From sequence record NC_048186.1: a stretch of DNA of 64,000 nt; one strand, written 5' to 3'. The position numbers and the translations under genes were made by a program. This document shows, in pieces, positions 23,410-46,300 of the stretch (the stretch's first letter is position 1; each line of letters opens with the position of its first letter). Below the pieces are notes generated by a model. That model was not told the origin of the DNA and did no database searches. It saw nothing but the letters and a program-made list of their open reading frames with translations. Origin of the DNA: Escherichia phage vB_EcoM_KWBSE43-6.

Positions 23410-23415
23410 TTTGTA

Positions 23416-23501
23416 TGGTGGAAGATACAGGATTCGAACCTGTGCAACCTTTCGGTTGTACACCTTAGCAGGGTGCTGCAATACCGCTCTGCCAATCTTC
23501 C
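23416..23501 (-). tRNA. tRNA-Ser (anticodon GCU), long variable arm, CCA encoded
   Basis: Acceptor GGAAGAT/ATCTTCC, anticodon loop CUGCUAA, long variable arm, T-loop TTCGAAT. Confidence 0.75.
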
Positions 23502-23692
23502 TATTTATTCGCTTCTATGGCTCGAAGTTGCTTCTCAGCGTCTTCTTTGGATTCATGTGTTCCCAAAACCTTTGTTTTGGTATGGTCCAACACAACCCAA
23601 TGATCACCACGCTTTTCAACAAACTCAACAATTTCTTTGTTGTCAGTCGCAAGACCATCCCATTCAGTTAAGAACTCACCGAACGTTTTCAT
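23501..23692 (-). CDS. small hypothetical protein embedded in tRNA cluster
   Basis: ORF track 23501..23719 (non-ATG start); likely start MMKTFGEF at 23692; protein-like composition. Confidence 0.5.
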   Translation of the reverse strand: MKTFGEFLTEWDGLATDNKEIVEFVEKRGDHWVVLDHTKTKVLGTHESKEDAEKQLRAIEANK

Positions 23693-23919
23693 CATACTCA
23701 CCAATCGTTTATTGAACAACTGGTTTATTTAGGTGCTCCCGAGGCGGTATTTTAATCCCGCGATCCCATCTCGCCTGCCGTAGACCAGAGCTTGTTGGCA
23801 GTCCAACAAATTTGGCGGGGTCTGAGGATTTTCACCTCACCTGCTGGATTGGCCTCCAGCCGTTCTCTCTGGGGACTCGCCGTCCGGACAGCTATCCCTT
23901 AAACTATCGCCCCTTAATA

Positions 23920-23995
23920 TGGTGATCCTGATTGGTTTTGAACCAATGACCAATCGATTATGAGTCGACTGCTCTAACCACTGAGCTACAGGACC
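23920..23995 (-). tRNA. tRNA-Met/Ile-type (anticodon CAU), CCA encoded
   Basis: Acceptor GGTCCTG/CAGGATC, D-arm GCTCAGTGGTTAGAGC, anticodon loop CUCAUAA, T-loop TTCAAAA. Confidence 0.75.
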
Positions 23996-27232: not shown

Positions 27233-27539
27233 AATAAGATCCTCTTGTAGAATTGAAATAAACGCCATCATTATAATAGAACGATTGTTATTGAATATTG
27301 GTCTCTAAATTACAGGAGTGTTTTATTAATAGGCAGAAACTACTTTTCTAACACATCTCTAGACTGTATGCTAACGCTGTGCCCTTCGAGTTGTGAGTGT
27401 CAACGAACAACGAGAAGCAGCCTCCCTGGCTGTGGAAGGGTGCCAGCCCGCACAGGGCGGTCTTACGAGCGAAGCGAGTTGATTAATATATTTGATAATA
27501 ACGCGCGCGAGAGTAAATTCCTTTCTCTGTCTTCAACAG

Positions 27540-27546
27540 CTAAATA
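27540..27546 (+). promoter_or_regulatory. late-promoter-like motif CTAAATA
   Basis: Motif about 40 nt upstream of the baseplate wedge start; same heptamer recurs upstream of at least nine other plus-strand structural genes. Confidence 0.35.
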
Positions 27547-27586
27547 TCTCCAACACCATATTCAAACTTGTGTGACGGAGATCAAC

Positions 27587-29368: not shown

Positions 29369-30203
29369 TAACGGACATCTGGGCGTCAAATATGAGACGC
29401 CGTTGTTCTACCAGAACGATTTCCCTCTGTTCATTGAGTTCATGGATACGTTCTTCAATTGGCTGTATCGCCAAAACGGTTTCACTGAAGAAGAAATCCT
29501 TGCTTACCTGGCGGACACCAGTTGGCTGAATCCGGCTAGTGACGCCAGCCCGCTGATGCAGCTGGTAGACCTGAAGATACAGAAGACGCCCGGTACTGCT
29601 GTGCGTGATATGCTCCTCGACAAATATCTGGTCAGGACATTTGAGCAAATGATGGCGCTTGATACTGAAGAATTGTTGGACTCTGATGGGCGTCCTCTAT
29701 TTTCACCTGAAGACAAGAATTCAAGTATTGATGCCTGGTATAAAGAATTCGGGTTTCAAAGAACGGTTGACAAATCTTTTCCTGAATTTGGGTTCTTTGT
29801 ACCAGAAGGATCTGATGGTCTTATTACAGCGGATGGCAACCAGTTCTCGGTTTATATCGAGGGAACGCGCCGCCGGACATTAGATCACACCCGCTGGCTG
29901 AAATTGTTGAAGCATATCTATAAAATACGGGGAACGCAGAAAGCAATAGAATTGTTCTTCTGGATTTATTTCGGTGTTCCAGTTACTGTATATTATCCGA
30001 AAGAAGATTTGGCTGGTTTGGATGCTAACTTTGATTGTGATGGTGAAGTTGGTCTTCGTGATGATTACTACTATGACGAATACACATATGTCATAAGAAT
30101 ACCTGGCGACGTCGCAGATTTCGAAGGTGTATTCGATCGCGTGTTCCGTCAACACTTCCATCCATCTGGTTTCAAAGTATTCCTCGAAAGCACTAGGAGT
30201 TAA
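29352..30203 (+). CDS. baseplate/tail structural protein, hypothetical
   Basis: 283-aa ORF overlapping the end of the gp6-like gene; placement in baseplate module. Confidence 0.5.
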   Translation: MSKDLNNGHLGVKYETPLFYQNDFPLFIEFMDTFFNWLYRQNGFTEEEILAYLADTSWLNPASDASPLMQLVDLKIQKTPGTAVRDMLLDKYLVRTFEQMMALDTEELLDSDGRPLFSPEDKNSSIDAWYKEFGFQRTVDKSFPEFGFFVPEGSDGLITADGNQFSVYIEGTRRRTLDHTRWLKLLKHIYKIRGTQKAIELFFWIYFGVPVTVYYPKEDLAGLDANFDCDGEVGLRDDYYYDEYTYVIRIPGDVADFEGVFDRVFRQHFHPSGFKVFLESTRS

Positions 30204-30207
30204 GAAA

Positions 30208-31461
30208 ATGGCTGATTATCTGAGCAAATATACAGGCCAGCAGATAGATAGTATTCTAGATGCGGTCGATGGAAAACTGAACAAAACTGATGTCGTGAAC
30301 GATATCACGGTAGATGACGACCTGTCCCCGGCGTCAGCACACCTTACGTTCGTCTTAAAATCTGCTATCGATACAATGAACGATGTTTTGACCAACAAAG
30401 TTGTTCGTACCGATGGGCAAGAACAAACGATAAACGGGAAAAAGACTTTTGCGTCTGTTCTGAATGCAAATGGTGGCATCGTAGTCCCGGCCCAACGCTC
30501 TATAACGATCACGGATGAACCTGCGGCCAACACGGATGCGGTGAACCTCAGCATGTTGAAAAAACATGGGCTGAGCACTGTGGATTCCGTTGGTTCTGGT
30601 TCTGGTCTGAAGATTTCGTTGCTTTCCAATGGTTACAACAAATTGGAAGTCGATCTCTCTAATCTTGTCGTGAGGACAGACACAGCGCTCCCTCAATCGC
30701 TGGCTGTGTATTCACCCACAGGTGGGTCACAAATATGGTCTATGACAAGCCTGTTCAACAGTTTTTTCGCTGACACTCGTTTCAACGACTACGTGAAGGT
30801 CGTGGAATATGATTCAGATATGCTGAACATTGAAACGCAATTCACTAGCGTCAACAACCGCATAAATCTGAAACTGGATACTGCGACATATACGACGAAA
30901 ATGACCAGTCTGGATTCTCAGATAGCGAATTTACAATCTGGGAAAGTGGATAATACGACGTATACGGCGAAAATGACAAGCCTTGACAGTCAAATCAGCG
31001 GCCTGTCTACGAATAAAGTTGACAAATCGACGTATGACACCAAAATGGCTAGTTTAGACGGTCAAATCAGTGATCTGACTACAAACAAAGTCGATGTGTC
31101 GACGTACACTACTGATATGAACGCCTTGAATTTGGCGCTGGCGGGTTCGGTGAAATTGGCTAAAACCAACACCACCAGTGTTTCTGTCCCGGCTTCTGGT
31201 AGTGCTGCGTTACCTGATTTCACTTTGGTGAATCTGTGTCAAATTTTGATTACAGCCAAATGGGGTACATTGGTTGATACGTTCTTGGTCACAATGACGT
31301 ATGACGGTACTCTTCAGGCAACGTCATTGACACAAAAAAGTACGGCGGGGACTTTGTCGTTCGCAGGTTCTGTTGTTTCAGGTAAACTACGCCTGACAAT
31401 GACCAATGCTAATACAACAACCGCAGCATCTGTCGATTATTCACTTCGTGCTTCTTTCTAA
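30208..31461 (+). CDS. tail fibre protein with tandem 24-aa repeats
   Basis: Start MADYLSKYTGQQ with AGGAG SD; three and a fraction tandem repeats YTxKMTSLDSQIxxLxxxKVDxxT. Confidence 0.65.
   Translation: MADYLSKYTGQQIDSILDAVDGKLNKTDVVNDITVDDDLSPASAHLTFVLKSAIDTMNDVLTNKVVRTDGQEQTINGKKTFASVLNANGGIVVPAQRSITITDEPAANTDAVNLSMLKKHGLSTVDSVGSGSGLKISLLSNGYNKLEVDLSNLVVRTDTALPQSLAVYSPTGGSQIWSMTSLFNSFFADTRFNDYVKVVEYDSDMLNIETQFTSVNNRINLKLDTATYTTKMTSLDSQIANLQSGKVDNTTYTAKMTSLDSQISGLSTNKVDKSTYDTKMASLDGQISDLTTNKVDVSTYTTDMNALNLALAGSVKLAKTNTTSVSVPASGSAALPDFTLVNLCQILITAKWGTLVDTFLVTMTYDGTLQATSLTQKSTAGTLSFAGSVVSGKLRLTMTNANTTTAASVDYSLRASF
30889..31140 (+). repeat. tandem in-frame 72-nt repeat (about 3.5 copies) inside tail fibre gene
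   Basis: Copies begin at 30889, 30961, 31033, each starting tatacg/tatgac...aaaatg. Confidence 0.7.
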
Positions 31462-31512: not shown

Positions 31513-34500
31513 ATGGCTAATAAACCCACGAAACCAAATTTTCCGCTTGGGCTTGAATCACAAGATCAATCCGTATTTCAAGAAGGTATTCTGAATAATG
31601 GTGTTGTAGAACATGGCCCAGATGCGGTAATGACTGTGCCAGAAACTCCTGACGCATCTGGGGTTCCTTCTGCTGTCCGTTATAACGAAGATGACGACCA
31701 GTTTGAAGGCTATTACAACGAAGGCGGTTGGTTGCCGCTTGGGGGTGGTAACGGTGGGCGCTGGGAACTCCTTCCGCATGCCCCCTCTTCCTTGTTACAG
31801 CTCGGTCGTGCATATCTGGTGGATAACACTGACGGTGCCTCTACGGTGGTTTTCCCTCCCCCTAAACGGGTTGGTGATAGCATCACTGTGTGTGACCTTT
31901 TTGGTAAATTCTCAACTTATCCTCTGACTGTTGACGGTAACGGTAAATCGATCTATGGCTCTGCGGATAGCATGACGATTTCTACCGATAACGTCAGCGC
32001 GACGTTTACGTGGACTGGTGAATCCCGTGGCTGGGTTATTACATCAGGCGTCGGTCTGGGACAAGGCCGGGTTTATAGTCGCGAAATTTACAGCCAAATT
32101 CTGTCAGCGACAACACCATCTATTACCCTGAGCACTCAACCATCTATTGTAGATGTGTATGTTGACGGAAAACGTTTGAAAGAATCCCTGTATACTCTCG
32201 ACGGGTATGAAGTTAAATTCGATCCGGCGCTGGCCTCTGGTTCTGATGTGCAGATTATTCAGTACATCCCAATTCAGCTCGGCGCGGGCGGTGGGGGTTC
32301 TGGTGGAACTGTAATCACCTGGGAATACAACGGCGGCTCAGCTATCGGCGGAGAAACCCAAATCGTGTTGGATGTGGTCGTGGACTCAGTATCTGAGATC
32401 TACATCCGTGGTTCCCGTCAACAGATAGGGCGCGGGTTCACATTTGATCCTGCCACCAGTACGATTACCTTGGCGGATGAACTGGATGCCGGGGATGACG
32501 TTGTCGTCGTTATCAACGGTGACCCAACGGTCTACAACCAAATAGATCGCACTCCTTGGGAAGTTGCTCGGGCGTTTAACGTCTCAAATAACAGCGTCAT
32601 TATGAGCAATGACAGGAATACTACCCTTGACGGGAAAACGATAGTATACGATATTAACAGTCAAAACTCTTGGGAAATTCCTGCTGGTATTCCTGTTGGC
32701 GCTAAAATATCAAGTGTTTCTTCAGGGATTCTTGTGTACACCCCTGGTAACGTCAGTGTCACATTGACATTGTTGACGACGGGTACTACTGTTCTGAAAC
32801 GCCTCGCCAATAGCAATTCTGGTAACGGCGGTGATATGGTTCTTTACAAAGCATCTTCAAATGCTGTGGAAAGAGCTATTTCTATGGCGTTGAAAGATTT
32901 TGTAAACCTCCATGATTATTATCTGTCTTCTGATAACGGAGATTGGTATCCTGCATTTAACAGGGCTTTCCAAGATTCCCAAAATATTTTAGTTCCTTAT
33001 GGTTCTCATGTTGTCAAAACCACGGTTGTTCCACCATCCAATTCAAAAATAATTGGTCTTGGGGAAGCCAGTATCGTTAAATCACCAGATGCGATTGACG
33101 CCGCCGCCACAAACCTCGTTACCGTGTTTCGGGCTACTGGTTCAGATAATATATTGATTTCTGATATTACAATAGATGGTGGTGTTAACGAAGTCAACAC
33201 CGCCAAATCCTTTACACGAACTGTAAGGTTCATTAATTGTACCAACGTGTCGTTGCTGAGGGTTCGAGTATTAAACAACGCGGATTGGTCGACATCGTTC
33301 GAAGGCGGTCATGACTTTACGGTGAAGAATTATTACCAAAGATCGTATCGTTATCAGAACACTGCTATCAATTTGAATGGTGGACGTGATGGCCTACATT
33401 TCATGGATTGTTATAATGTGAATGCAGACGGCCTTGACATAGAATCTGGTGATGATTGCGTGGGTATCACCACTACTGGTACAGATCTTGAAAATATCAC
33501 GATTCGTAACCTGTGGGGTTCATCCAATATTGCTTCTCTCGTTATTTTTAACGAAGAAAAAGATTCTAACGATGTGTACTATTCAGCTAATGTCACTGGA
33601 TTGAATATTAGTGGTATCAGGATCAAGAAAGGCGGCAACGCTCGAAATATCGTCAGGGTTATAGGATACGGTGCCAACACCCAAATCAAAGATGTTTCAA
33701 TCTTGGATGTAAGGGGAAAAGCCTTTAACTCTTATGGTATTTGGGTGCAAGGTAGCGTTGACCATCCAGTAGACACAGTACACATAAGCAATTCAGACGT
33801 TGGTTCACAACAGGCCCACGGCGTTCTGTTGCAGAATATAAAACGTTTGTCCGGTAACGTCTATGGTTATTATGAGGGTGTGAATTCTTCCGCTTCATTT
33901 GTTGGTGTGAACATGGTTTCGATCACTGGTGCGATGTTCACTCCAGGTTCTAGAAGTTCTTACGGGTATGGTGTACAAGTTCTGACCAGTAAAGATATCG
34001 TGCTGACACCTGATATCGAAAGTTGCGGCGCTGGGTTGTTCAGCTCTGCTTCTGGGGGTAATTTACGAATAGTAAACTGTGATGGTGTAACCATACCTTA
34101 TGGCCGTGCCGTCGGGGACGTGGCTGTCAGCTATTGGGGTATCAACTTCGGTGGAAATACAAATTTAGACGTGGGTCTGGAATTCGTGTTTGGTGGGTTT
34201 ACCAACTCGTCTCTCCCGAACTCTTATTATTTAAAAGCCCCAGCAGTTGATATCAAATGGAAAGAAGCGTCTGACGGGACTGTGACTATGAGTATCGCTC
34301 GTGGCGCCAGTATAGTCAGAAACAGCCAAGGCAATTTTACAATAACGTTCAACAATGATATGCGCAGTACATTGTTTTCTTGGCAGGCGACCGCCTATCA
34401 CAATGGCGCGTTACGTTTAGTTCGTCTTGCTTCTGCTGTGGGGACTAAAACGATGACGATACAAGTAACGGATACGGCAAATGCCGCGACGTTCGCTGAT

Positions 34501-34542
34501 TTTATAGAATTGAAAGCGTTTAACACTGCTACAGGATCTTAA
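31513..34542 (+). CDS. tailspike / tail fibre protein with beta-helix (pectate-lyase-like) repeats
   Basis: 1009-aa ORF; Gly-rich linker GAGGGGSGG; repetitive NxSGIRI / DVSILDV beta-helix-like coils. Confidence 0.75.
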   Translation: MANKPTKPNFPLGLESQDQSVFQEGILNNGVVEHGPDAVMTVPETPDASGVPSAVRYNEDDDQFEGYYNEGGWLPLGGGNGGRWELLPHAPSSLLQLGRAYLVDNTDGASTVVFPPPKRVGDSITVCDLFGKFSTYPLTVDGNGKSIYGSADSMTISTDNVSATFTWTGESRGWVITSGVGLGQGRVYSREIYSQILSATTPSITLSTQPSIVDVYVDGKRLKESLYTLDGYEVKFDPALASGSDVQIIQYIPIQLGAGGGGSGGTVITWEYNGGSAIGGETQIVLDVVVDSVSEIYIRGSRQQIGRGFTFDPATSTITLADELDAGDDVVVVINGDPTVYNQIDRTPWEVARAFNVSNNSVIMSNDRNTTLDGKTIVYDINSQNSWEIPAGIPVGAKISSVSSGILVYTPGNVSVTLTLLTTGTTVLKRLANSNSGNGGDMVLYKASSNAVERAISMALKDFVNLHDYYLSSDNGDWYPAFNRAFQDSQNILVPYGSHVVKTTVVPPSNSKIIGLGEASIVKSPDAIDAAATNLVTVFRATGSDNILISDITIDGGVNEVNTAKSFTRTVRFINCTNVSLLRVRVLNNADWSTSFEGGHDFTVKNYYQRSYRYQNTAINLNGGRDGLHFMDCYNVNADGLDIESGDDCVGITTTGTDLENITIRNLWGSSNIASLVIFNEEKDSNDVYYSANVTGLNISGIRIKKGGNARNIVRVIGYGANTQIKDVSILDVRGKAFNSYGIWVQGSVDHPVDTVHISNSDVGSQQAHGVLLQNIKRLSGNVYGYYEGVNSSASFVGVNMVSITGAMFTPGSRSSYGYGVQVLTSKDIVLTPDIESCGAGLFSSASGGNLRIVNCDGVTIPYGRAVGDVAVSYWGINFGGNTNLDVGLEFVFGGFTNSSLPNSYYLKAPAVDIKWKEASDGTVTMSIARGASIVRNSQGNFTITFNNDMRSTLFSWQATAYHNGALRLVRLASAVGTKTMTIQVTDTANAATFADFIELKAFNTATGS

Positions 34543-34543
34543 C

Positions 34544-34780
34544 ATGAATATAAATTGTGTTTTTGTGAAAGACGAAATTCCCCTTGAGAAACAAGATGAC
34601 TTTTTGAAATTATTTTTGGAAAGAATATCATTGGAATTCTCTGATGTCGTGATAACGGCAGAATGGGGAGACGATGAAACTGCTGTCGTTTCAGAGGATT
34701 GTTCTGATTACGTCAAAGCAAATTATCAAAGATTTGTAGACGGTCTTAAACAAGACCTCATTATTTTCGATTATTTCTAA
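34544..34780 (+). CDS. small acidic hypothetical protein
   Basis: 78-aa ORF starting 2 nt after tailspike stop. Confidence 0.45.
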   Translation: MNINCVFVKDEIPLEKQDDFLKLFLERISLEFSDVVITAEWGDDETAVVSEDCSDYVKANYQRFVDGLKQDLIIFDYF

Positions 34781-34819
34781 ACTAAATACCCCATATTGGT
34801 AACGCCTTATGGGGTATTT
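34781..34819 (+). promoter_or_regulatory. CTAAATA motif embedded in an 11-bp leader hairpin immediately upstream of tailspike start
   Basis: aaataccccat...atggggtattt stem ending 4 nt before ATG 34823; no SD; near-identical architecture to 31469-31509. Confidence 0.4.
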
Positions 34820-34822
34820 CAA

Positions 34823-37402
34823 ATGGCCAGAAACATAGAAGAAATTTTCGGTGGGGTAGTCGTAGCACCACACCAGATCCCGTTCACGTACACTTCAACA
34901 AACGGTGGGGAAACTTTTATATCTCTGCCATTTTATCCCATCACCGGGTTCGTTACTATCAACGGTGGTGTACAGGTCCCTCTTGACAATTTCGAAATAG
35001 ACGGAAACACATTAAATCTTGGTCGAGAACTGGATCCAAGTGATGTTGTGTTCTGTTTGTTCGATAAAATCATGTCACCTCAAGATGCCAGTAACAACGC
35101 AGTTCGAGTTTATAAATTCATCTCTGTTGGAGGAGAAACGGAATTCACTCCAGATTTTACGGCGTATGGTGTCCAATCTCTTTATATCAATGGGAAATAC
35201 CAAATAGCTGGTGAGGATTACACATATTCTAAGACAGATGGGAAAGTTTCTTTTACTACCCCATTAGTTACTGGAGTATGGGTTGCAGCTGAGATGAACA
35301 TAAAGCAAAATATCCCCGCTTTAGCTGGCAATAATGGCGCATCACAAATCGGAACAGAATCAGGGCAAAATGTTCAATTAGAACTCGATTCATTCCGTAA
35401 TTTGTTCGGGGAATATGGGTTTAGCATGATAGGGCAAACCACATATCAAGGATTGAGGAATTATAACGGCAATTCCAATTATATGATGATATATGGTAGA
35501 TCCTATCTTCTAGATGGTGGTCATGGTATATTTGATTTAGTTCCTGGCGGTAATGCCATGACAACCCCTGACGATGATTGTGTGCATATTCGAGATACGT
35601 TGGGGCGGTTATGGCGTCGTAGATTTGAAGACAATGTCATAAGAATGAGCTGGGCGGGTGCTAAAAACCAATTAGAAACATCATCACCACAAGATGATGC
35701 TTTCAGGAACTGCCTGCTTGCGGCCAAATCGTTGTCTCCTACTGGTTATCCACAATCAATCATTAAAGGATTAGACCGTGGTGTAGTTTATCTTGCAGAG
35801 CGGCATTATATCCGTTGTGGTAATTTCCCTGAATATATGGCGTGGAAATTGCCACCTACTGGTGGTGGTGACCGTTTTGGGCTGGATCTGCTGTGTGCAT
35901 TGGGAGAAGGGGCGGGGTTCTTTATCGTCCAAGCTAATAACCCATTGTTGCGCGTCCGGGTAGACAACACTGGTATCCCATTCAATGTTTCGAATTATAC
36001 TGATGCCCAACTTGTGAGTATAGTTGAGAACAATTATATCTTACGTTTGGAATCAATGGTGAACGCTCCGGAATTCGACGTTCATCCAGGTAATTATCCC
36101 GGTACTGTTCTTTACAGCACGGGTAAAAAGGATTATTCTGCAGTAACTGCACAATGGCCTGATTTGGTCCAAGTCTTACCGTCTATACAGAACGTCGGTA
36201 ACGCGGTGTTTAACATAAAAAACTGTGGTCGAGATTTTATGTTAACCAATACTGGGGCTGGGTTGGGTCATTTTCATTCCGTTTGGTCACAAAATAACCG
36301 ACTCCCTGGTTATATATCGAACTGCTATGATTTAACGATGACATATGAAGATTATGTCCCACACAACGAAACATCTGGTGGATTGATATTTAGTGAATGT
36401 GGCACTCTTTCTTTAGAAAATATTTTGATTGGCGCAGGTGGGGTAGGACATTTGTGTATATGGGATTGCCGTAACGTCCATATGAACCGTCATATCTCTA
36501 TATGTGGTAATACCACTTGGGCTGCATCTAACCAAGTAGATGATCTTTATGCTTTAGAAATTTGTAACTCCGAAGTTCATATGAGCGGCGTGCATGCTCA
36601 AAACTCTGGTAAATTCGCACGTGTAGGATTCAATTCACAATTAACGGTTGATCACCTTACTGCATGGGATGTTTCAAAATTATTCTTGATGACGAATGAT
36701 TTGACTAAATTGAAATATCGTGGGCAGCGGCAGGCTGTTACAGGGGACCCGAGCCGGATTTATGTGACATCAGGATTCGCTCAAAACCTTAACGCATCTC
36801 AGTTCGGTTGGGCTTGTGCTCCTGTAATAGAAATCGACAGCACAGTTAACGGTGATTTCAAATTTTATTGGAATTGCTGGACCAATAACGTTCATGCAGG
36901 GTATGGATCTGAATCTGAAGCAAATCTTGCTATTATTAGCGTGGCTTCTACAAGTTCTACAGGATCTGTGTCATTCGGCGAAGACGCTAAATTGGAAGGT
37001 AATACGACGAACTACGTCCTTCGTCTTGCAAACAAAAACCAATTGGGGAAAGTGCGCACTCGTCAAACATCTTTCTGTCGTGTACGTTATACCAATGACA
37101 ACTCACAGTCATCTTTTGCAATGCGCGAAGCTGCTCATGACAATGGAACTACTGTGATCCCTATTGACGGAACAACATACAGCTATCCGTACCGCAGACC
37201 TGCTAAATATTTCGTATCTTTAAACGTCCCTGCTGGTGGTGGTTCATGCTCAGTGACATTAAACGGTATGACGATTTTCCAAACTACGGTAGTCGGGACA
37301 CATGGTATAGTTATTGAAATGAAATACCAAGAAACCGTCGTGTTTACGTCATCCAACGTTACTGTATCGAATGCGCAGTGGCGTTATATTTTGGAGGAAT
37401 AA
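34823..37402 (+). CDS. tailspike protein (beta-helix)
   Basis: Start MARNIEEIFGG (ORF track start 34796 is an upstream extension); large beta-rich repetitive protein in tailspike array. Confidence 0.7.
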   Translation: MARNIEEIFGGVVVAPHQIPFTYTSTNGGETFISLPFYPITGFVTINGGVQVPLDNFEIDGNTLNLGRELDPSDVVFCLFDKIMSPQDASNNAVRVYKFISVGGETEFTPDFTAYGVQSLYINGKYQIAGEDYTYSKTDGKVSFTTPLVTGVWVAAEMNIKQNIPALAGNNGASQIGTESGQNVQLELDSFRNLFGEYGFSMIGQTTYQGLRNYNGNSNYMMIYGRSYLLDGGHGIFDLVPGGNAMTTPDDDCVHIRDTLGRLWRRRFEDNVIRMSWAGAKNQLETSSPQDDAFRNCLLAAKSLSPTGYPQSIIKGLDRGVVYLAERHYIRCGNFPEYMAWKLPPTGGGDRFGLDLLCALGEGAGFFIVQANNPLLRVRVDNTGIPFNVSNYTDAQLVSIVENNYILRLESMVNAPEFDVHPGNYPGTVLYSTGKKDYSAVTAQWPDLVQVLPSIQNVGNAVFNIKNCGRDFMLTNTGAGLGHFHSVWSQNNRLPGYISNCYDLTMTYEDYVPHNETSGGLIFSECGTLSLENILIGAGGVGHLCIWDCRNVHMNRHISICGNTTWAASNQVDDLYALEICNSEVHMSGVHAQNSGKFARVGFNSQLTVDHLTAWDVSKLFLMTNDLTKLKYRGQRQAVTGDPSRIYVTSGFAQNLNASQFGWACAPVIEIDSTVNGDFKFYWNCWTNNVHAGYGSESEANLAIISVASTSSTGSVSFGEDAKLEGNTTNYVLRLANKNQLGKVRTRQTSFCRVRYTNDNSQSSFAMREAAHDNGTTVIPIDGTTYSYPYRRPAKYFVSLNVPAGGGSCSVTLNGMTIFQTTVVGTHGIVIEMKYQETVVFTSSNVTVSNAQWRYILEE

Positions 37403-37404
37403 TA

Positions 37405-37704
37405 ATGATTAAAGCAATCAAAGGGGATTTCACTGCTGTAACTTCAGTAGGAGAAATTTCATATCAATACGCTACTGTCCAGACTTTTCGGGGAGATGCA
37501 ACGAGCGTGACCGTAGATGTATTTCTTTCCGATCGCTGGATTATCCAACGGGACGGGATCAATGTGGTAGATGATACTGCGCCTGGATTTTTCAAATCTG
37601 TACAGTTTGCTCCTGATTGGCAGAGCAGTTTGAATATCATAGATCAGGCTTATGAATATTTGAAAAGTCTTCCAGAGTTTTCAAATTCTACTGATGTTGT
37701 ATAA
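37405..37704 (+). CDS. hypothetical small protein
   Basis: Start MIKAIKGDF with GGAGG SD. Confidence 0.5.
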   Translation: MIKAIKGDFTAVTSVGEISYQYATVQTFRGDATSVTVDVFLSDRWIIQRDGINVVDDTAPGFFKSVQFAPDWQSSLNIIDQAYEYLKSLPEFSNSTDVV

Positions 37705-37738
37705 AGTTAAGGGGGCTAGACCCCCTTAACTTATTTTT
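37705..37738. terminator. bidirectional terminator hairpin
   Basis: agttaagggggctagacccccttaact followed by tatttttc. Confidence 0.65.
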
Positions 37739-37976
37739 CTATTTGTACAACAATCCCGTTTTCTTTTAAAACAGCTTCCAATTGCTCAATATGTAGCCTT
37801 AAATTTGAGTAGACGGTCGCTGCGATCAAAATTTCTTCACTTAATTTAACAGGTGAGTGAAGTGCGTCTATGTTAAAATTTCCTCCTGACGCAATAACTT
37901 TTCCATCTTCGTTAAATGTGTAGATGCAAGGATCTGGTTTATTTTTCTTAATCTTTATCAGTATTTCTTGTTTCCC
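37731..37976 (-). CDS. small protein on opposite strand within tailspike cluster
   Basis: ORF track 37731..38096; likely start MGKQEILIK at 37976 with GGAGA SD; flanked by bidirectional terminator. Confidence 0.45.
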   Translation of the reverse strand, partial: GKQEILIKIKKNKPDPCIYTFNEDGKVIASGGNFNIDALHSPVKLSEEILIAATVYSNLRLHIEQLEAVLKENGIVVQIEK

Positions 37977-38049
37977 CATGATACATATCTCCAGCTGACT
38001 ATGATTTGTACAAACATTGTACCCGAAACCGTTCGTTTGGAATAATACA

Positions 38050-38056
38050 CTAAATA
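38050..38056 (+). promoter_or_regulatory. late-promoter-like motif CTAAATA
   Basis: Located 39 nt upstream of ATG 38095. Confidence 0.35.
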
Positions 38057-38094
38057 CAAGAATCAAGCCACAGAAAAACAACAGGAGATTCATC

Positions 38095-40098
38095 ATGAAT
38101 CCGCAATTTAGTCAGCCCGGTGGTTCCGTCTCTAAAGACGTGAACAAACAATCTATCGCACGTGTATTCTCTAAGAAAAAGAGTGATATATCATATTTGA
38201 AAGTTGGTTCTAGCGTTAATGGTTATGCTGTGCTATTCGAGCCGACAACCCAAACGTGTTGGTTTAGAGGGACTGCAACAGGTAATACAGTTTCTTGGAC
38301 TATCAACAATGATATCATGACTTTAGTGACTTCGGGTGGTTCCTTCACTCTGAACAAAGCCCAAGTTTGGGATTCTGTTACACTTTCCGGTGGAAATGCG
38401 ACGAGTTTGATCGGAACACCTTCTGGTGGAACGTTAGCTAATCTGTTATTACGGACTGTGTCTCCTGCTGAATTCGGATTAGAAAACGATCCAACAGGAG
38501 TCAAAGCAGATAAAAATACCATGGCTGTTCAAAAGGCTATTCGTTACCTGAATTCTTTGGGTGGTGGACGTCTCTTGTTCCCTACTGGGCAATACACATT
38601 TTGCTATGGAATTTGGTTGTTTGACAACATTCTGATCGATCTGAACGGTAGCATCTGTACTTTCAAAAACGCAACTTTTCCATTACGCAGTCGGGCATGT
38701 TTTGTTATGGGTTCTTCTTATGAAGTCAACCGTGACAAGGCTATGAGTTTTTATGATGACGGCACCTACATCAACAACCCAAACCCGACCAATACAGCAT
38801 ATGTGAATTTGCCGTTGGGAACGTTTTTGCGTGACAATGTCAATAAAGCGGAAATCAAAAACGCGCATATAATGAATGGGCATATCAAAGCCACGTTTGA
38901 TTCCCCTACTGCAAACGGTGCTTATGCAATAAATATGGCAAATGCGATGTATTGCACAGCACATGATTTATTCTTTACTGGATTCACAGAAGCCATAAAC
39001 ATGGGTTCGGATACTGGTTCTGAAACTCCGTCTTGCCATGGTTGTCTGGCTCATGATCTTTATATCGTTCAGCCTGACCAAAATAAAACTTATTATTCAA
39101 TTGGTTTTATTTCAAACTCCACCAACTGTTCCATTCAACGGGCGATACAATATCTGCCTTGCGCCGCCGGGACAGAGAACGGGTCGGGTGTGGCTACTAA
39201 CGTCGTTGAAGATTGTATTATAGAGGACATATTCATACCTTCTTTGGGTATTACGCAATCTTCTGAAGGGGTTCTTTTAAACAACGCAAAAGGATGTGTT
39301 GTGAGGAACATTTGTGTCCGAAACTGTAAAGTGGTGGTGGCTGTTTATTATGTCAGCACCAGCTATATCAGTGCTGACAAATGGAATCATATTTCTGGCA
39401 TAACTGGCCAAGGCACAGTTGCATTGATCGCAGTGCGCGGAAAATATACCACATTTACCGGATTCGCTGCGGATTCAACGACGCCGTATGAAATATATTT
39501 CGGGACTACAAACGGATCTAACAACCGTATTGAACAAGAACCGGCTAGTATGTATTTCACAGAGACATCAACGGTCAAACAATATTGGTATTGCAATAAC
39601 AACTACATCAAAGGATGGGTCGTCAAATATCTGTATTTGCGGCCAATGAATACACTGGTGAATGACAAATCTGTTGCATTCAACTGGAACATGAACAAAT
39701 CCGTGTCAGCCAACGATGACACCACGTTGTATTTCTTATGGGAAGTTCCTCCGTCCGTGAAGGCTATAAAGGCGGTCAAACTTTTCGCATATTACAATAC
39801 CAACGCAGTGGCTAAAGGAAGTAATATCAAAATAGAAGTTCGTAGGATGATAGCGTTTGATGGTAACGCTAACACGTTGCCGTACATAGAACCTGCCATT
39901 GGTGCAACTTCTACAGCAACGGTGGATCAACAGAATATAGCCATGAGCGCGGTTCATTCCGATACGGTTAGTCCCGGCATGGTAGTAACTGGCGATACTA
40001 CGAATGGCCTGTCGAATAGTGTTGACATTTTGGTTACGTTTGCCAACACGTCCAAAAACTCTTTAATGAAAGAAATGGAAATTACATACCTGGGGTGA
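38095..40098 (+). CDS. tailspike protein with conserved N-terminal module shared with 40429 gene
   Basis: Start MNPQFSQPGGS with AGGAG SD; N-terminal ~90 aa similar to the next tailspike (QTCWFRGTATG vs QTCWYRGTATG). Confidence 0.7.
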   Translation: MNPQFSQPGGSVSKDVNKQSIARVFSKKKSDISYLKVGSSVNGYAVLFEPTTQTCWFRGTATGNTVSWTINNDIMTLVTSGGSFTLNKAQVWDSVTLSGGNATSLIGTPSGGTLANLLLRTVSPAEFGLENDPTGVKADKNTMAVQKAIRYLNSLGGGRLLFPTGQYTFCYGIWLFDNILIDLNGSICTFKNATFPLRSRACFVMGSSYEVNRDKAMSFYDDGTYINNPNPTNTAYVNLPLGTFLRDNVNKAEIKNAHIMNGHIKATFDSPTANGAYAINMANAMYCTAHDLFFTGFTEAINMGSDTGSETPSCHGCLAHDLYIVQPDQNKTYYSIGFISNSTNCSIQRAIQYLPCAAGTENGSGVATNVVEDCIIEDIFIPSLGITQSSEGVLLNNAKGCVVRNICVRNCKVVVAVYYVSTSYISADKWNHISGITGQGTVALIAVRGKYTTFTGFAADSTTPYEIYFGTTNGSNNRIEQEPASMYFTETSTVKQYWYCNNNYIKGWVVKYLYLRPMNTLVNDKSVAFNWNMNKSVSANDDTTLYFLWEVPPSVKAIKAVKLFAYYNTNAVAKGSNIKIEVRRMIAFDGNANTLPYIEPAIGATSTATVDQQNIAMSAVHSDTVSPGMVVTGDTTNGLSNSVDILVTFANTSKNSLMKEMEITYLG

Positions 40099-40101
40099 TT
40101 T

Positions 40102-40347
40102 ATGCAAAATTCGGCTATGCGTGATGCGTTATCTCTATTTTATGCTTTATACGACTATTTGGTAAACAAAGTGGAATTGACAGAAACAGAAGAATCTGTC
40201 AAATCTAAAATAGAACAAGATATGGGGATACGTTGTGATGATTCATTGGATGAGCAAATCCTACAACTGCAATCAGAACTAAACCAAGCAGTTGAAGAGG
40301 GAGAACGTCACCAAATCTTAGATAATGTGGTTGAACTTTTGAAATAA
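40102..40347 (+). CDS. small helical hypothetical protein
   Basis: 81-aa ORF followed by terminator. Confidence 0.45.
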   Translation: MQNSAMRDALSLFYALYDYLVNKVELTETEESVKSKIEQDMGIRCDDSLDEQILQLQSELNQAVEEGERHQILDNVVELLK

Positions 40348-40349
40348 CA

Positions 40350-40375
40350 AAGCCCCTTCGGGGGCTTTTCTTTTG
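40350..40375 (+). terminator. rho-independent terminator
   Basis: agccccttcgggggct followed by tttcttttg. Confidence 0.65.
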
Positions 40376-40381
40376 AACAAA

Positions 40382-40388
40382 CTAAATA
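40382..40388 (+). promoter_or_regulatory. late-promoter-like motif CTAAATA
   Basis: Located about 40 nt upstream of ATG 40429. Confidence 0.35.
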
Positions 40389-40428
40389 CAAGGAGACATT
40401 GTTAGAAAAACAACATGAGGAACCACCC

Positions 40429-42705
40429 ATGAAAACGCAATTTAACCAATCACAAGGCTCAACTTCACGTGAGACGAATAAAGAAGCGATTGCTCGCATC
40501 TTTGGTCTCAAGAAGTCTCAAGTCGGATATCTGTCAACAACCACTCCAATTGATTCGTATGTCATATTGTTTGACAAAGAAACTCAGACGTGTTGGTATC
40601 GAGGTACAGCAACAGGTACTCCAATTTCTTGGAATGTCAATGGTGAATCATTATCTTTGACAACTAATTCTGGAACTTCTATATTAACTAAATCTAAACC
40701 ATGGGATGAATTGAATCAAAAACTATCATCACCACAAGGATTTGGTGCGATAGGCAAATTTTCTTCTTTGATTAATTTAAGAAATCATGAACCCACATAC
40801 CCTGGCGAATCTGTGATTTTAGAAAGAATAGCGTCTGGGAAACCGACAGTTAACGTAGTGCTAAGGCATGATCCTACTGATACCACGTCTGTGGATGACG
40901 ACATAAGCATATTTGTTACACCTGGTGGTGCTCGTTGGAAATTGGATATTAGTGATGGTTATGATATGAGACTGGCAGGGGTTAATGTTGATGGTACAAA
41001 CTTTTCCTCTGCTTTAAATAAAATAGTCAGTGTCATTATTTCAAAAATAGTAGCTAATGGGCGGGTAAATAATGTTGCTCGTCGCATAAAAGTTGTCCCG
41101 ACAAATTTTTTATGTCAATTCTTTTTAACTGATCCTGTTGATTTACCATCAATCGTGTCATGTTCTTTTTATGGGTCACCATTCATAGAATCACAAAACA
41201 TGACGGGACTCTATTCTTTCAGAATAGCCAACCAACCGTTCAGCACGTTGACCAAGGCTATGATGCAAGCAGAAACTTCGTGGCCTAATGGCCCGTTAAA
41301 CCAAGTTATCGGGAATAAAGTTATAAATTCAGGGGATGGCGGGAGAATAACTTTAAGGGGACCCGGATTTTCAGATGGTGTCCCAAGGATAGGTGTTATA
41401 TTAGGTAATGATGTGACCACAGATAAAGACGTGAGGGATTGTAGCGTAGAAGATATGAATATCTTCGGCTTCGACGCTTCTCATACGTTGGGTGGCTATT
41501 TTACCTTTATGGCAGGCTTCCGGAATTGTAACTTCTCGCGTTGTAATGTTGGTATGCGATTACCAAATATCACTGGAAACGCTGGGGAAAGAATGTGGTA
41601 TGATTCTTGCACTTTTGGTAACATGACAAGCCATGCATTACACGTATTTGGGGCTGGTACGTATAGCTTGGTCAACACTTCCATAGACTTCATAGGCGGG
41701 GATATGTTCCATTATGGATCTGATTCTTCTGTGTCTATAGAATTTATTTCAGGCCATATAGAAGGTATACAAGGGTATGATGCCGCGAAAGATACTCCGA
41801 CGAACTATTCTCAGGCCAGGGTTCATATCCATTCTGCCGTTCTGAGAGATCCGAGACAAGGAAGCGGCCAATACAGGGGTATAAGGCAACGTTGGTCTTG
41901 CCCTTCTTCTTCATTTGGGCAAGGACTTTCCGTAATAGACGAATCTATTTCCCCCGGAATGGAGAATACAAAACCGAACACTGCATATCCGTGCTTTATG
42001 GGTAGTCCAAGTAATACTGGTGTTTACATAGAAACCCCGCGAACTGCTAACCGGGGAACGCCGTGGTTGAACAGCTATAGTGATTCTTGTTCCAAGAGAA
42101 TAAATCCGACATATTTCTTTATAACTTCGGCGGGTACTGGGGAGTTAGGTCAGAGTCAATTAGTGTTGGATTATAACTTTTCATACACCAAAACTGGGGA
42201 TGGAATAGTAGAATATGGTGTAGTCGGTGACGCGGATGCAGATGGATTTATACCGTTCAAGATTACTTGTAATGATGTCAATACAGTCATTAATTTGTTC
42301 TGTAATAACCGATCTAAAGCCACCAACGGAAACAAGCCTTTATGGGGAGCTTGCTCAGTTAAATTGGCGAATTCCGTGGGTGATGTCATGATCGCTCCAC
42401 TTAGGGCAACATATTTAGGTTCTACTATCACGTCGATATATAATGACACCACGAAGACGGTAACAAGTACGTTAAATCCTGTTCTTCGTTCAACAAACGT
42501 GGGAGTTGCTCTTAACCTTAGAGATCTGTTGAACGGAAGCGGACTAACAACTAATGACTATCAGGCGACTTATCCTCGATATGTTACTGGTTACTACCAG
42601 GGCAATGATTTCTTTGTCCCCGGTTTCCGCCTTTGGAATTTCACAGGAACCATATATTTGAAATTGCCTATTTGGTGGTTCGAAGGTGATAACTTTGGAG
42701 CATAA
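40429..42705 (+). CDS. tailspike protein with conserved N-terminal module
   Basis: Start MKTQFNQSQG with GAGGAA SD; shares N-terminal module with 38095 gene; Gly/Ser/Asn-rich beta-helix-like body. Confidence 0.7.
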   Translation: MKTQFNQSQGSTSRETNKEAIARIFGLKKSQVGYLSTTTPIDSYVILFDKETQTCWYRGTATGTPISWNVNGESLSLTTNSGTSILTKSKPWDELNQKLSSPQGFGAIGKFSSLINLRNHEPTYPGESVILERIASGKPTVNVVLRHDPTDTTSVDDDISIFVTPGGARWKLDISDGYDMRLAGVNVDGTNFSSALNKIVSVIISKIVANGRVNNVARRIKVVPTNFLCQFFLTDPVDLPSIVSCSFYGSPFIESQNMTGLYSFRIANQPFSTLTKAMMQAETSWPNGPLNQVIGNKVINSGDGGRITLRGPGFSDGVPRIGVILGNDVTTDKDVRDCSVEDMNIFGFDASHTLGGYFTFMAGFRNCNFSRCNVGMRLPNITGNAGERMWYDSCTFGNMTSHALHVFGAGTYSLVNTSIDFIGGDMFHYGSDSSVSIEFISGHIEGIQGYDAAKDTPTNYSQARVHIHSAVLRDPRQGSGQYRGIRQRWSCPSSSFGQGLSVIDESISPGMENTKPNTAYPCFMGSPSNTGVYIETPRTANRGTPWLNSYSDSCSKRINPTYFFITSAGTGELGQSQLVLDYNFSYTKTGDGIVEYGVVGDADADGFIPFKITCNDVNTVINLFCNNRSKATNGNKPLWGACSVKLANSVGDVMIAPLRATYLGSTITSIYNDTTKTVTSTLNPVLRSTNVGVALNLRDLLNGSGLTTNDYQATYPRYVTGYYQGNDFFVPGFRLWNFTGTIYLKLPIWWFEGDNFGA

Positions 42706-42706: not shown

Positions 42707-42961
42707 ATGTATACCATACATAAAATTCCTTGTGACATAGTCTACAATTCTTTGTTAGAGCATCATAAGTTTTTCATATCTTTAAAGAAAGATTTGGCAA
42801 AGCGTATTAAGAATTCTACGTCAGGATTCAAATATGAAAATTTCAAATTTTGTTATGACAAAGATGATGTAAATCAATATTATCTAAAATTAGATTCAAA
42901 ATGTCGTGACTTTGAAACCCAATTAAACGAAATTTGGTTTCATTCAGTACACCAACAATGA
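42707..42961 (+). CDS. hypothetical small protein
   Basis: ORF track 42686..42961; ATG 42707 has GGAG SD. Confidence 0.4.
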   Translation: MYTIHKIPCDIVYNSLLEHHKFFISLKKDLAKRIKNSTSGFKYENFKFCYDKDDVNQYYLKLDSKCRDFETQLNEIWFHSVHQQ

Positions 42962-42971
42962 GGATTATGGT

Positions 42972-43232
42972 ATGAAATTTAGTATAATTGAAACAGAAGT
43001 TAACCCAGGTTCTGAACTAAGGAATTTCTTAGTCGTTCCTGCAGGAAGTGAAAAAGAAACCGAAGACAATTGGATTCTTTCTTTCAAACATGATTCTGTC
43101 GATACTTTGCAAGAAACCGCTTCTCGTTATCTCATCGCATTCGGTGTCTTGTCCTCGTTGTCACTCAGTTTAGACAACACTGCTATTGTTGAATTGGTGA
43201 AAACTTTAGATAACACTTCAGTTTCAAGTTGA
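42972..43232 (+). CDS. hypothetical small protein
   Basis: 86-aa ORF followed by terminator. Confidence 0.45.
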   Translation: MKFSIIETEVNPGSELRNFLVVPAGSEKETEDNWILSFKHDSVDTLQETASRYLIAFGVLSSLSLSLDNTAIVELVKTLDNTSVSS

Positions 43233-43238
43233 TGCAAT

Positions 43239-43265
43239 TAGCCCCCTCGGGGGCTTTATTCTTCA
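43239..43265 (+). terminator. rho-independent terminator
   Basis: agccccctcgggggct followed by ttattcttc. Confidence 0.6.
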
Positions 43266-43293: not shown

Positions 43294-43327
43294 ATTCCAA
43301 GACAAAACTCTATAGATGGAGTACAAA

Positions 43328-46300
43328 ATGCAACAATTGAATCTTAACCGCCGCCCTTATTGGGACGACTGGAATCCAGAGAAGCGTTTCAGCCGCATCC
43401 TGTTCCGCCCAAATCCAATCAAAGTACAGACTCGTGAGCTGAACCAGCTGCAGACTATCCTACAGGATCAAATTGAGAAGATCGGTAATCATCTTTTCAA
43501 AGACGGTTCCATGGTAATCCCAGGCGGTTTGACTATTACCAATTCGGCTGTATCCATGAAGTTCCAGCTGGCGGGTGGGAGCGAATTCACCGACCTGGAA
43601 GGCATTCAAGAACTGTACGTGATTGGCAAAGACAACAACGCCAAGGCCCGTGTATTGTCTCTGGAACGCTACACCAGCGAACCGGATATGATGTTCTGTA
43701 TCCTGGAAATGACCGAGTCCGGCACTGCCGATGGATTCAGCCCGAACGATAATCTATACTTCAACACTTATGATGTGAATGATAACTTCATCCGTATCGG
43801 TTATGGTGTTGCACAGACTGTCGGTGGCTCTATTGTTGCTCGGATGACCAAAGGCGTCTATTTCGTTCGTGGGTTCTTCCTCGACGTTGACGATGATATG
43901 TTGGTTGTCAACAAATATGCAAATAACACCAGCCATCGCGTCGGGTTCAAAGTTACTGAAGAAATCGTGACTGAAGAGCAAGATAGTAGTCTGTTCTCCA
44001 ATGCCCAGGGTACACCGAACACCAAAGCGCCGGGCGCTCATCGCCTTCGTTTGGATCTGAGTCTTCAGGCGTTTGATTATGACGCAGAAGTCGAAGATTT
44101 CGTTGAGCTGGCGAAGATCAAAGACGGTAAAATCCAGTCTATGGTCACCCAATCGACGTACAATATCCTCGAAGACACTATGGCCCAGCGCACCTATGAG
44201 CAAGCTGGTGACTACAACGTGTCTACTCACCAGATCGACCTTCGCGAACACCTGAAAGAAAACAACAATGGTGGGGTATATACTCCGGCCGAAGGTGGCG
44301 ATGAAAGCAAACTGGTTGCGGTAATGAAGCCGGGCATTTCTTATGTCCGTGGTCGTCGTATTGAGAACGTCGGGGAAGAACTCGTCGTCATTGATAAGGC
44401 GCGTGATACAGACCTCCTGAACAACACGCCAGTTGCTGTAGCGACAGGTAATTTCCTGACGACCAAGAACTCTAAAGGTGTTCCTGTTATCAGCCGTAGT
44501 ATTCGCTACAAATTGCTGAATGCTTCTGGTGTTACCCAAGCGACTGCCCTGTGTATCTCCGCCGACCGTACCGGGACGGAATTCCGTCTGTATATGCGTG
44601 ACCTGGTCGTCACTGGTGATATGAGCACGGTCACCAAAGTCGCTTACGAAGAAAGCGGGACCACGATGTTCTCGGCAGCGTTGGAAACTAATCAGTTCTC
44701 ACAAAGTTCATCTATGGATCTCATATTTGAACTGCCTGTCTTTGGCGTGAAAACTTTGGCTCCGACCGGAACGATTGATATCAACTACACCGTCTTGCGT
44801 TCTTACAAAATTACGCTGGATGCGTCAGGTAACGGTTCTATATCTGCACCGCTGGGATACAGTTTTTCTCCGGAATTCTCACTCTACTCCGGAGCGAAAT
44901 CTGACGGAACCGCCGCCCAGATCGATATCTCCAGCAGCCTGTCTCTGACCGGGACACCAGTTGGGTCGGCTCTGCAGATTTCCCTCGGTTCCGGTAATGC
45001 TCTGCAATCTATCAACCTGTTGGCGCTGATGGTACGCACCACTGCTATCATCAAAACCAAAACTGTTACGACTGCTACTGAGACTGTGATCTTCACCAAC
45101 CAGGCCAGCATCCAGCTTGCGAACCATGACGGCTACAAATTGACTTCCGTCAAAAATGCCAATGGTGCTGACGTGACCTCTAACTTCACTCTGGATGGCG
45201 GGCAGCGTGATGCGGCGTACTACAAGTCCAGTCTGATATCGGCCACTGGAGCCATTTCAGGCGCGTATACCGTGGAATACACGTATTTCGCTCACAGTAC
45301 TGGTGACTTCTTTACCGCTGATTCGTATACTTCTATTGATTACAAATCAATCCCGAATTATACGTCGAGCACGTCGGGTACAGTGTATGGTCTGGCCGAC
45401 AGTATAGACTTCCGCCCTAAAATCACCAATGGTGCGTCTGATACTGATATGGTGCGGCCTAACACGGCGATCATCATGGACGTTGAATATTATCTGCCTC
45501 GCATTGATGCTGTGTACCTGGCAGACAACGGCGTTTTCAACGTTGCTCGTGGTATCAGTTCGAACAACCTGGCGGCTCCGGCTATTCCAGCAAACGCCAT
45601 GCGTTTGTACGAACTGTTGATTCCCCCATATACTCCGGATATTGACGATATTCAGATCCGTACTATCGACAACCGCCGCTACACAATGCGGGATATCGGT
45701 AAGCTGGACACCCGTATATCGAACGTCGAGTATTACACAACACTGTCTCAGCTGGAATCTTCGGCTATGACTCAGCAAGTATTCGACCCGGTAACAGGCA
45801 ACCCACGTTACAAAAATGGTATCGCTGCTGATCCGTTCAAAGACTTTCGTCTGATTGATGATCTGTCTTCCGACTGGATGGGTTCCGTAGACACCGACAA
45901 TGGTCGCCTGCGTCCGTTTGTACAACAAAACGCGATTGACCTGGTTCCGGATGGGTGGGACAAGGTTATGGACGGTATGGTCGTGTGCAAATACACACCG
46001 GAAATTTCTGTTAATCAGGAATATGCGACGACGACGATCAACGTCAACCCATATGCTGTGTTTAACTGGACGGGGTTCCTCAAACTCAATCCGACAACAG
46101 ATTACTGGTTTGAAAACTACTACGTTGCCCCTCGTGTTATCAACGAGACGATCAATACCCGTGGTGCTGTCCAAGAAGGTACGGTTTATGGTACATGGCG
46201 GACTGTGTCTGTATCTGAGCGGGTATGGGAACCGCACGGCGCGGGCGGCGTATGGTGGGGATATCGTTATAGAACCACTGTGTCTACACGTGATGTTTCG

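Follow-up and report, generated by a model that had tools for sequence, protein, structure and literature searches.

Sequence comparison identifies four tandem genes of Escherichia phage vB_EcoM_KWBSE43-6 as the standard four-gene tailspike (tsp) cluster of this published Taipeivirus (Ackermannviridae). The genes, referred to as P1 to P4, are four plus-strand open reading frames (ORFs) which according to the ORF list span positions 31513-42705 of the window, the stretch of 64,000 nucleotides from NC_048186.1 that was analyzed. We estimate a probability of about 90% that the cluster builds a branched receptor-binding complex of the type described for Kuttervirus CBA120 (Plattner 2019; Chao 2022, PMC8825819), with four polysaccharide-directed bodies that are swapped as cassettes. 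The homologies, folds, synteny and mosaic pattern were computed here, and from these we infer in what order the spikes physically assemble, what enzymatic activities they have and which substrates they act on. The cluster is already known and ordinary for the field, and its reading as a branched and swap-prone complex with multiple specificities is the textbook description of Ackermannviridae.

KWBSE43-6 was published as a founding member of the genus Taipeivirus in a study which described the adsorption cluster as the main variation among relatives, and which reported a polygalacturonase domain in gp148 and downstream spike-like genes without conserved domains (Korf et al., 2019; PMC6563267). 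In a megablast search the window groups with Klebsiella Taipeivirus phages. P1 (31513-34542, 1009 amino acids) is the orthologue of TSP4 and consists of a baseplate anchor, a docking scaffold and a GH28-like beta-helix body. P2 (34823-37402, 859 amino acids) is the orthologue of TSP2, with an XD2-XD3 docking N-terminus, a neck, a beta-helix body and a C-terminal beta-sandwich. The two short tailspikes are P3 (38095-40098, 667 amino acids), with a head module and a pectate-lyase-like beta-helix body, and P4 (40429-42705, 758 amino acids), with a head module, a small domain, a neck helix, a beta-helix body and a C-terminal beta-sandwich. A preliminary description, made from the DNA sequence alone, had listed four tandem genes of 1009, 860, 667 and 758 amino acids. 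These lengths are correct for P1, P3 and P4. P2 is one residue shorter, because the CAA codon at 34820 had been counted; the ATG is at 34823, in agreement with the deposited protein. P1 (YP_009822509.1), P3 (YP_009822514.1), P4 and s2, a small ORF downstream of P3, are residue-for-residue identical to the RefSeq proteins of KWBSE43-6, as is P2 from its ATG. The RefSeq names of P1 to P4 are, in this order, tail protein, tail fiber protein, tail protein and tail spike protein.

Docking domains of P1 and P2

Residues 1-339 of P1 (31513-32529; features are on the plus strand unless indicated otherwise) were matched by phmmer to residues 1-336 of the CBA120 TSP4-N crystal structures 7rej and 7rfo with an E value of 3e-141. 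This region contains the anchor and XD1, XD2 and XD3, which are docking domains similar to T4 gp10. P1 has the combination of a baseplate anchor and XD1-XD3 that marks the TSP4 type in the TSP1-4 cluster of Ackermannviridae. The following residues, approximately 340-423 (32530-32781), likely form an internal head (D1-like) domain, as suggested by PHROG and PDB alignments. P1 residues 276-423 align with residues 99-246 of CBA120 TSP2 and also with Gp49 of Shigella phage B2. In phrog_7992, a family of TSP4-like proteins, P1 residues 1-414 correspond to positions 1-411, and the P3 and P4 N-termini to positions 328-392. When P1 and P2 were searched with a hidden Markov model of the head module, neither gave a significant internal match.

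The N-terminus of P2 (residues 2-178) corresponds to that of full-length CBA120 TSP2 (6w4q residues 1-176; E 8e-73), and the AlphaFold model of P2 contains two beta-domains (residues 18-83 and 94-161) that Foldseek matched to TSP4-N. P2 has the XD2-XD3 N-terminus that characterizes the TSP2 type. A weak similarity of 59 residues (27% identity, E 6e-4 in BLASTP) connects P1 residues 277-335 with P2 residues 102-160. Apart from this pair and P3/P4, BLASTP comparison of the four proteins gave no significant similarity.

P3 and P4 begin with the same head module

The preliminary description had noted that the third and fourth protein share an N-terminus of about 90 amino acids, with different C-terminal bodies. 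This observation held up in a proper pairwise alignment. BLASTP aligned residues 1-95 of P3 (38095-38379) with residues 1-95 of P4 (40429-40713) without gaps, with 42 identities in 95 residues (44%) and an E value of 4e-26, and the proposed motif xQFxQxxGSxSxxxNKxxIARxF...QTCW[FY]RGTATG can be read directly from the alignment. Beyond residue 95 the bodies differ, with no BLASTP segment better than E 1. The heads of P3 and P4 (residues 1 to ~90) match CBA120 TSP3 (6nw9, 5w6f) and TSP1 (4oj5) with E values from 4e-8 to 1e-6, as well as gp63.1 of phage G7C (4qnl) and Gp48 of Shigella phage B2 (9d84); P1, like P3 and P4, also matches the G7C and Shigella phage B2 spikes 4qnl and 9d83/9d84. Both short spikes begin with the TSP1/TSP3 head, or Orf210 N-terminal, domain. 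According to a 2026 preprint the Orf210 N-terminal domain is the most widely shared anchor domain.

The family profile of P4 also aligns to the head region within CBA120 TSP2 (residues 159-346, E 2e-16) and to TSP4dN. Because this profile finds TSP2 and TSP4dN, and because the PHROG of TSP4-like proteins finds the N-termini of P3 and P4, the module is, as judged by these alignments, a general head domain of the spike family that stands at the very N-terminus in the two short spikes only.

All four bodies are beta-helix spikes

The bodies of all four proteins are right-handed beta-helix spikes, in line with the beta-helix type assigned to them in the preliminary description, and a parallel beta-helix body was found in each spike. 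For P1, residues 556-729 (33178-33699) form the core of a GH28-like parallel beta-helix, recognized by Pfam as GH28 (PF00295) with an E value of 1.7e-6, above the gathering score. Pfam and NCBIfam searches gave no match for P2, P3 and P4 even at E values up to 10. Many relatives carry the precomputed domain PF27114, an entry outside the Pfam copy searched. A profile built from 33 relatives of P3 matches the beta-helix start of polygalacturonases and of the Sf6 tailspike, with E values between 5e-8 (Sf6) and 1e-6, with further matches to exo-polygalacturonosidase, pectate lyase and mannuronan epimerases; PF12708 was found in 13 of the 33 relatives.

Structure prediction, which had been proposed as a check on the spike folds, gave confidently folded bodies for P2 and P4, the two that were modelled, and the P4 model resembles known tailspikes. 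The AlphaFold model of P4, based on an alignment of 52 sequences, has a predicted local distance difference test score (pLDDT) of 87 and a predicted template modelling score (pTM) of 0.78. With this model Foldseek found CBA120 TSP4dN (E 3e-19), the Klebsiella K2-2 TSP (E 3e-17), Kp7 gp52, Depo32 and other spike depolymerases. P4 is also 33% identical to a phiK64-1 protein that is named K11-specific depolymerase in UniRef.

Conserved N-termini carry exchanged bodies

Comparison at the nucleotide level with four relatives (UPM 2146, Bullseye, Menlow and May) revealed conserved N-terminal islands and replaced bodies, which supports the earlier suggestion that the locus is prone to domain swapping. 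Similarity to the four relatives ends at 32573-32767, 35296-35377, 38284-38301 and 40632 and resumes at 34772, 38070, 40346 and 43236. At the protein level, P1 is 98.8% identical to gp207 of UPM 2146 over its full length and matches Menlow over residues 1-412 only. P2 is 96.5% identical to the Bullseye protein (97.6% for the body alone), and outside Bullseye its match to the other relatives is limited to residues 1-164/189. P3 and P4 match Bullseye, UPM 2146 and Menlow, the three relatives compared for these proteins, at the heads only. Among database proteins, N-terminal-only matches stop where body-only matches start, at residues ~163-200 in P2, ~86-123 in P3 and ~82-110 in P4.

The relatives of the bodies are found in siphophages, podophages, jumbo phages, N4-like phages and prophages. 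The P1 body is 43% identical to proteins of jumbo phages, and the P2 body 65% identical to those of siphophages that were grown on ATCC 700603 or named K53. P3 is 72% identical, over its full length including the head, to spikes of N4-like Klebsiella Gamaleyavirus phages and 43% identical to a protein of siphophage JD001. The P4 body is 69% identical to proteins of the 46-kb phages S16a/c and 38% identical to one of podophage KN3-1. For P3 and P4, no close body relative from Ackermannviridae was present in the phage collection. The combination of the four bodies occurs in no single record of that collection, with a best coverage of the cluster of 43%. A metagenomic protein (P0061) carries a P4-type head (78% identity) on a P3-type body (85% identity).

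These patterns suggest a mechanism in which the conserved N-terminal modules and the sequence just upstream of them would act as homology arms, so that recombination would swap a body, together with any trailing small gene, as one cassette with other phages. The swap-prone reading is well supported by the sequence comparisons and agrees with published analyses of Ackermannviridae (PMC8432352, PMC11721090) and with the 2026 preprint on the Orf210 N-terminal domain. Compared with the other Taipeivirus phages 0507-KN2-1, Menlow, May, UPM 2146, Bullseye and phiHS2, KWBSE43-6 shares the genus, the synteny and the flanks (92-97% nucleotide identity) and differs in its combination of bodies and in the bodies of P3 and P4.

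Two side observations concern these comparisons. The sequences before the ATG of P1 (31492-31512, ggggtatttt-caa-ATG) and of P2 (34802-34822, ggggtattt-caa-ATG) are nearly identical, suggesting a conserved translation initiation region within the conserved islands. The annotation deposited for Klebsiella phage vB_Kpl_K57alpha1.2 (OY979416.1) does not line up with its DNA: there, an intact spike ORF of 667 amino acids is overlaid by opposite-strand 'pseudo' coding sequences with names such as RIIB and HNH endonuclease. For this reason the RIIB and HNH names under the P3 match in this record were disregarded.

A branched receptor-binding complex is predicted

In CBA120, TSP4 anchors the complex and TSP2 joins TSP4 via XD2; the TSP1 head binds XD3 of TSP4, and the TSP3 head binds only the TSP2:TSP4 complex (PMC8825819). 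P1, P2 and the P3/P4 pair carry the domains proven to build this complex, which supports the branched multi-tailspike complex postulated in the preliminary description and from which the assembly in KWBSE43-6 is predicted by domain homology. Trimers of the TSP4-like P1 would be fixed to the baseplate by their N-terminal anchor domain and would expose the three gp10-like docking domains XD1-XD3. The TSP2-like P2 would attach to P1 by its own XD2 and add a further XD3 platform. P3 and P4 would dock by their N-terminal head of ~95 residues, one on XD3 of P1 and the other on the P1:P2 junction. Each of the four distinct right-handed beta-helix bodies would then bind and cleave a different surface polysaccharide. 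The idea of several polysaccharide specificities, also put forward in the preliminary description, fits the finding that the bodies are mutually unrelated and that each resembles the spikes of a different set of Klebsiella phages. Body relatives are named for, or were grown on, hosts of the K53, K57, K56/KN3 and K11 type, and the substrates are probably Klebsiella-type (group 1) capsules or O-antigens.

The likeness to CBA120 comprises the TSP4-like AD-XD1-XD2-XD3 anchor, the TSP2-like XD2-XD3 N-terminus, two short spikes with the TSP1/TSP3 head, four unrelated beta-helix bodies and the position of the cluster between baseplate genes and vriC. KWBSE43-6 differs from CBA120 in that its bodies resemble Klebsiella capsule depolymerases rather than E. 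coli/Salmonella O-antigen glycosidases, and in that its spikes are each trailed by small genes. A similar docking principle is found in the G7C-type N4-like apparatus (gp63.1/gp66; Gamaleyavirus; Gp48/Gp49 in Shigella phage B2), in which the same head docks a short spike on the gp10-like domains of a longer spike; those are podoviruses with two spikes, whereas KWBSE43-6 is a myovirus with four.

Several points weigh against a branched complex with four specificities. Both the complex and the depolymerase activity of KWBSE43-6 are predictions from homology. One E. coli strain was lysed by KWBSE43-6, and 19 Klebsiella strains were not (PMC6563267). A host is known for no more than one of the four specificities. 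The gene order is tsp4-tsp2-x-y, unlike the Kuttervirus order tsp4-tsp3-tsp2-tsp1 of CBA120. The similarity of P2 to 6w4q ends at residue 178 and the P2 model runs from XD3 through a low-confidence linker and a helix into the body, so that P2 appears, from the model, to be without the D1 head that CBA120 TSP2 has after XD3. The assignment of the short spikes to TSP1 or TSP3 is hardly separated by bit score (35.4 vs 30.5 for P3 and 32.2 vs 31.8 for P4) or by charge, both heads being basic (isoelectric points of 9.5 and 8.8).

The apparent lack of the D1 head in P2 would make the architecture not identical to that of the model system, and Taipeivirus spikes are known from sequence and not from direct structures. 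Both points could fit four independent tailspikes, each on its own baseplate site as in simpler multi-spike phages, instead of a branched scaffold centred on P1. We regard such an arrangement as very unlikely, as P1 and P2 retain XD docking domains at very high significance, P3 and P4 start with a head that is known only as a docking element for XD domains (PMC8825819), and a preprint on another E. coli Taipeivirus reports a branched tailspike complex by electron microscopy. The chance that at least one of the four bodies is a non-enzymatic binder or a relic, leaving fewer than four functional specificities, is small without being negligible: the host range is narrow, with one E. coli strain (PMC6563267), and P2 and P4 match no curated enzyme family in the Pfam copy searched. 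On the other hand, all four ORFs are intact, the two modelled bodies (P2 and P4) were predicted to fold with confidence, P4 has a homologue in the phiK64-1 protein with the K11-specific depolymerase name in UniRef, and the P2 body shares 97.6% identity with its counterpart in Bullseye, a phage that grows on K. quasipneumoniae ATCC 700603.

The N-terminus common to P3 and P4 could alternatively stem from a recent tandem duplication in the KWBSE43-6 genome, after which the C-termini diverged, rather than being an old, position-specific docking module. The adjacency of the two genes and the restriction of the similarity to their 5' ends would suit a duplication. The identity between the heads is merely 44%, though, and each head is closer to its same-position orthologues elsewhere: in UPM 2146 and Menlow the fourth spike shares 62-73% identity with the head of P4, and the third spike ~50% with the head of P3. 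The two head types (MNPQFSQ... and MKTQFNQ...) are distinct and widespread, recurring over dozens of database proteins, and the bodies of P3 and P4 are unrelated, each with its own relatives in other phage families. A recent duplication is, on this evidence, extremely improbable, and an old docking module that keeps to its position in the cluster is preferred.

Small ORFs downstream of the spike genes

Each of the genes P1 to P4 is directly followed by one or two small ORFs. Directly after P2 lies s1 (37405-37704, 99 amino acids), which has a GGAGG ribosome-binding site and belongs to phrog_18037, and directly after P3 lies s2 (40102-40347, 81 amino acids), which is acidic and belongs to phrog_19895. 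A tblastn search of 50,697 phage records found s1 seven times, in all seven cases directly downstream of a homologue of the P2 body (Bullseye with 90% identity and six siphophages with 46-47%). In the same records s2 was found eight times, each time 7 nucleotides after a homologue of the P3 body; these matches represent six distinct phages, two Gamaleyavirus and four siphophages. The same pairs occur in Klebsiella lambdoid prophages, with 38% identity for s1 (E 1.5e-17) and 41% for s2 (E 2e-7), and there the start of the small gene overlaps the stop of the spike gene. ORFs of the s1/s2 type are located at 6043-6258 of comparison locus L006, 8008-8247 of L004 (OY979416.1), 5472-5738 of L007 and 5184-5456 of L009. 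Both s1 and s2 stay with their body in Ackermannviridae, siphophages and lambdoid prophages, and s2 does so in the N4-like Gamaleyavirus as well. The two families are mutually unrelated and neither PHROG has an assigned function.

Directly after P1 lies s0 (34544-34780, 78 amino acids), which occurs solely in phages with an identical P1 body (UPM 2146 and cp21, 98.7%). P4 is followed by two candidate genes, s3 and s4 (84 and 86 amino acids, together 42707-43232), for which no relative was found in the phage records or beside the body homologue of S16a; in the relatives, the position before vriC is taken by a small ORF that differs from phage to phage. Extension of the cassette rule to P4 was considered and dropped, as s3 and s4 have no relatives, and for s0 the rule holds trivially, the bodies being identical in all cases.

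Like Tfa of lambda, Mu and P2 and like gp38 of T4, s1 and s2 are small genes that lie directly downstream of a receptor-binding gene and co-vary with its C-terminal part. They differ from these in that their partners are beta-helix spikes instead of fibres, in that they have no Pfam similarity, and in that their role is predicted. Searches of Pfam gave no match and the only PHROGs found are of unassigned function, so that s1 and s2 do not belong to the Tfa or another chaperone family by these searches. Beta-helix spikes are generally held to fold unaided or with a C-terminal intramolecular chaperone. In a single case, TSP2 of phage May, such a chaperone domain (PF13884) is present and no small ORF follows. 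Within the genus, co-transfer of a small gene could be explained by recombination between conserved heads, which could not explain its retention across unrelated backbones. By analogy with Tfa we tentatively propose that s1 and s2 may be dedicated, body-specific partners of beta-helix spikes, in which case trans-acting folding or assembly factors would be their most likely role; we hold this to be possible rather than probable. In the literature searched we found no description of an external assembly-factor role for genes of the s1/s2 type, and an earlier description is possible.

Flanking genes and transcription units

Upstream of P1 are three baseplate or tail genes (27368-31461) encoding a T4 gp6-like wedge subunit, a second wedge protein and a putative tail protein. 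The annotations of Bullseye, UPM 2146 and Menlow list the same three genes in this order, with 92-96% nucleotide identity. Downstream of P4 is the gene of a VriC-like protein of 1616 amino acids (43316-48166) with a DUF4815 domain (Pfam, E 8e-59), whose counterparts in Bullseye, UPM 2146 (there annotated as VriC) and Menlow share 99% or more of its amino acids. A cluster located between three baseplate genes and vriC is a family-defining trait according to a 2024 review (PMC11721090). KWBSE43-6 has this arrangement, and Bullseye, UPM 2146, Menlow and May share its order of three baseplate genes, tsp4, tsp2, tsp, tsp and vriC. The ORF list was also checked for a fifth tailspike and contains none between the baseplate genes and vriC.

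Strong intrinsic terminators were found at 37704-37732 (12-bp stem with 6 GC pairs, followed by a T run), at the end of P1-s0-P2-s1; at 40349-40368 (8-bp stem with 5 GC pairs and T runs on both strands, bidirectional), at the end of P3-s2; and at 43240-43255, at the end of the P4 unit and of the variable region. Because of these terminators, the sequence suggests the three transcription units P1-s0-P2-s1, P3-s2 and P4-s3-s4. Matches to sigma-70-like promoters in the region are at chance level (31 against 30.6 expected). The conserved island that precedes P4 starts at the terminator at 40349-40368, and at the last terminator conserved sequence resumes at 43236-43240 in all four relatives. The boundary between hypervariable and conserved sequence is sharp at this point, with a VriC-like protein of at least 99% identity next to wholly different spikes.

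Between the P2 cassette and P3, the minus strand contains an ORF of 121 amino acids (37731-38096) with a hydrophobic N-terminal segment (MMNLLLFFCGLILVFSVLF). At the corresponding location Bullseye has an annotated gene with 75% identity to this ORF. The exact sequence of the KWBSE43-6 ORF was not present in the protein collection, and it may be annotated in KWBSE43-6 with another start or not at all. Elsewhere in the window, seven transfer RNA (tRNA) genes are located on the minus strand at 22308-23995 (Gln, two Tyr, Asn, two Ser and Met), and one of the two tRNA-Tyr(GTA) calls is just 71 nucleotides long.

Implications for Taipeivirus spikes

The analysis provides a domain-level map for a phage in which three of the four spikes had been reported by its authors to be without conserved domains (PMC6563267), and the tailspike cluster of Ackermannviridae was recognizable from the raw sequence at first pass. 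The relatives of the bodies suggest that KWBSE43-6, an E. coli phage, targets Klebsiella-type capsules. This is in line with the precedent of phiHS2, an E. coli Taipeivirus shown in a preprint to need the K47 capsule of E. coli HS, a group 1 capsule of Klebsiella-like type, and by analogy we infer that the single host strain of KWBSE43-6 carries a Klebsiella-like group 1 capsule. The cassette boundaries at 32573-32767, 35296-35377, ~38284-38301 and ~40632 are natural junctions for chimeric Taipeivirus spikes. If the small downstream genes are needed for folding, such swap designs and the recombinant production of depolymerases should include them, and external, cassette-linked helpers would be a new element in the biology and engineering of spikes.

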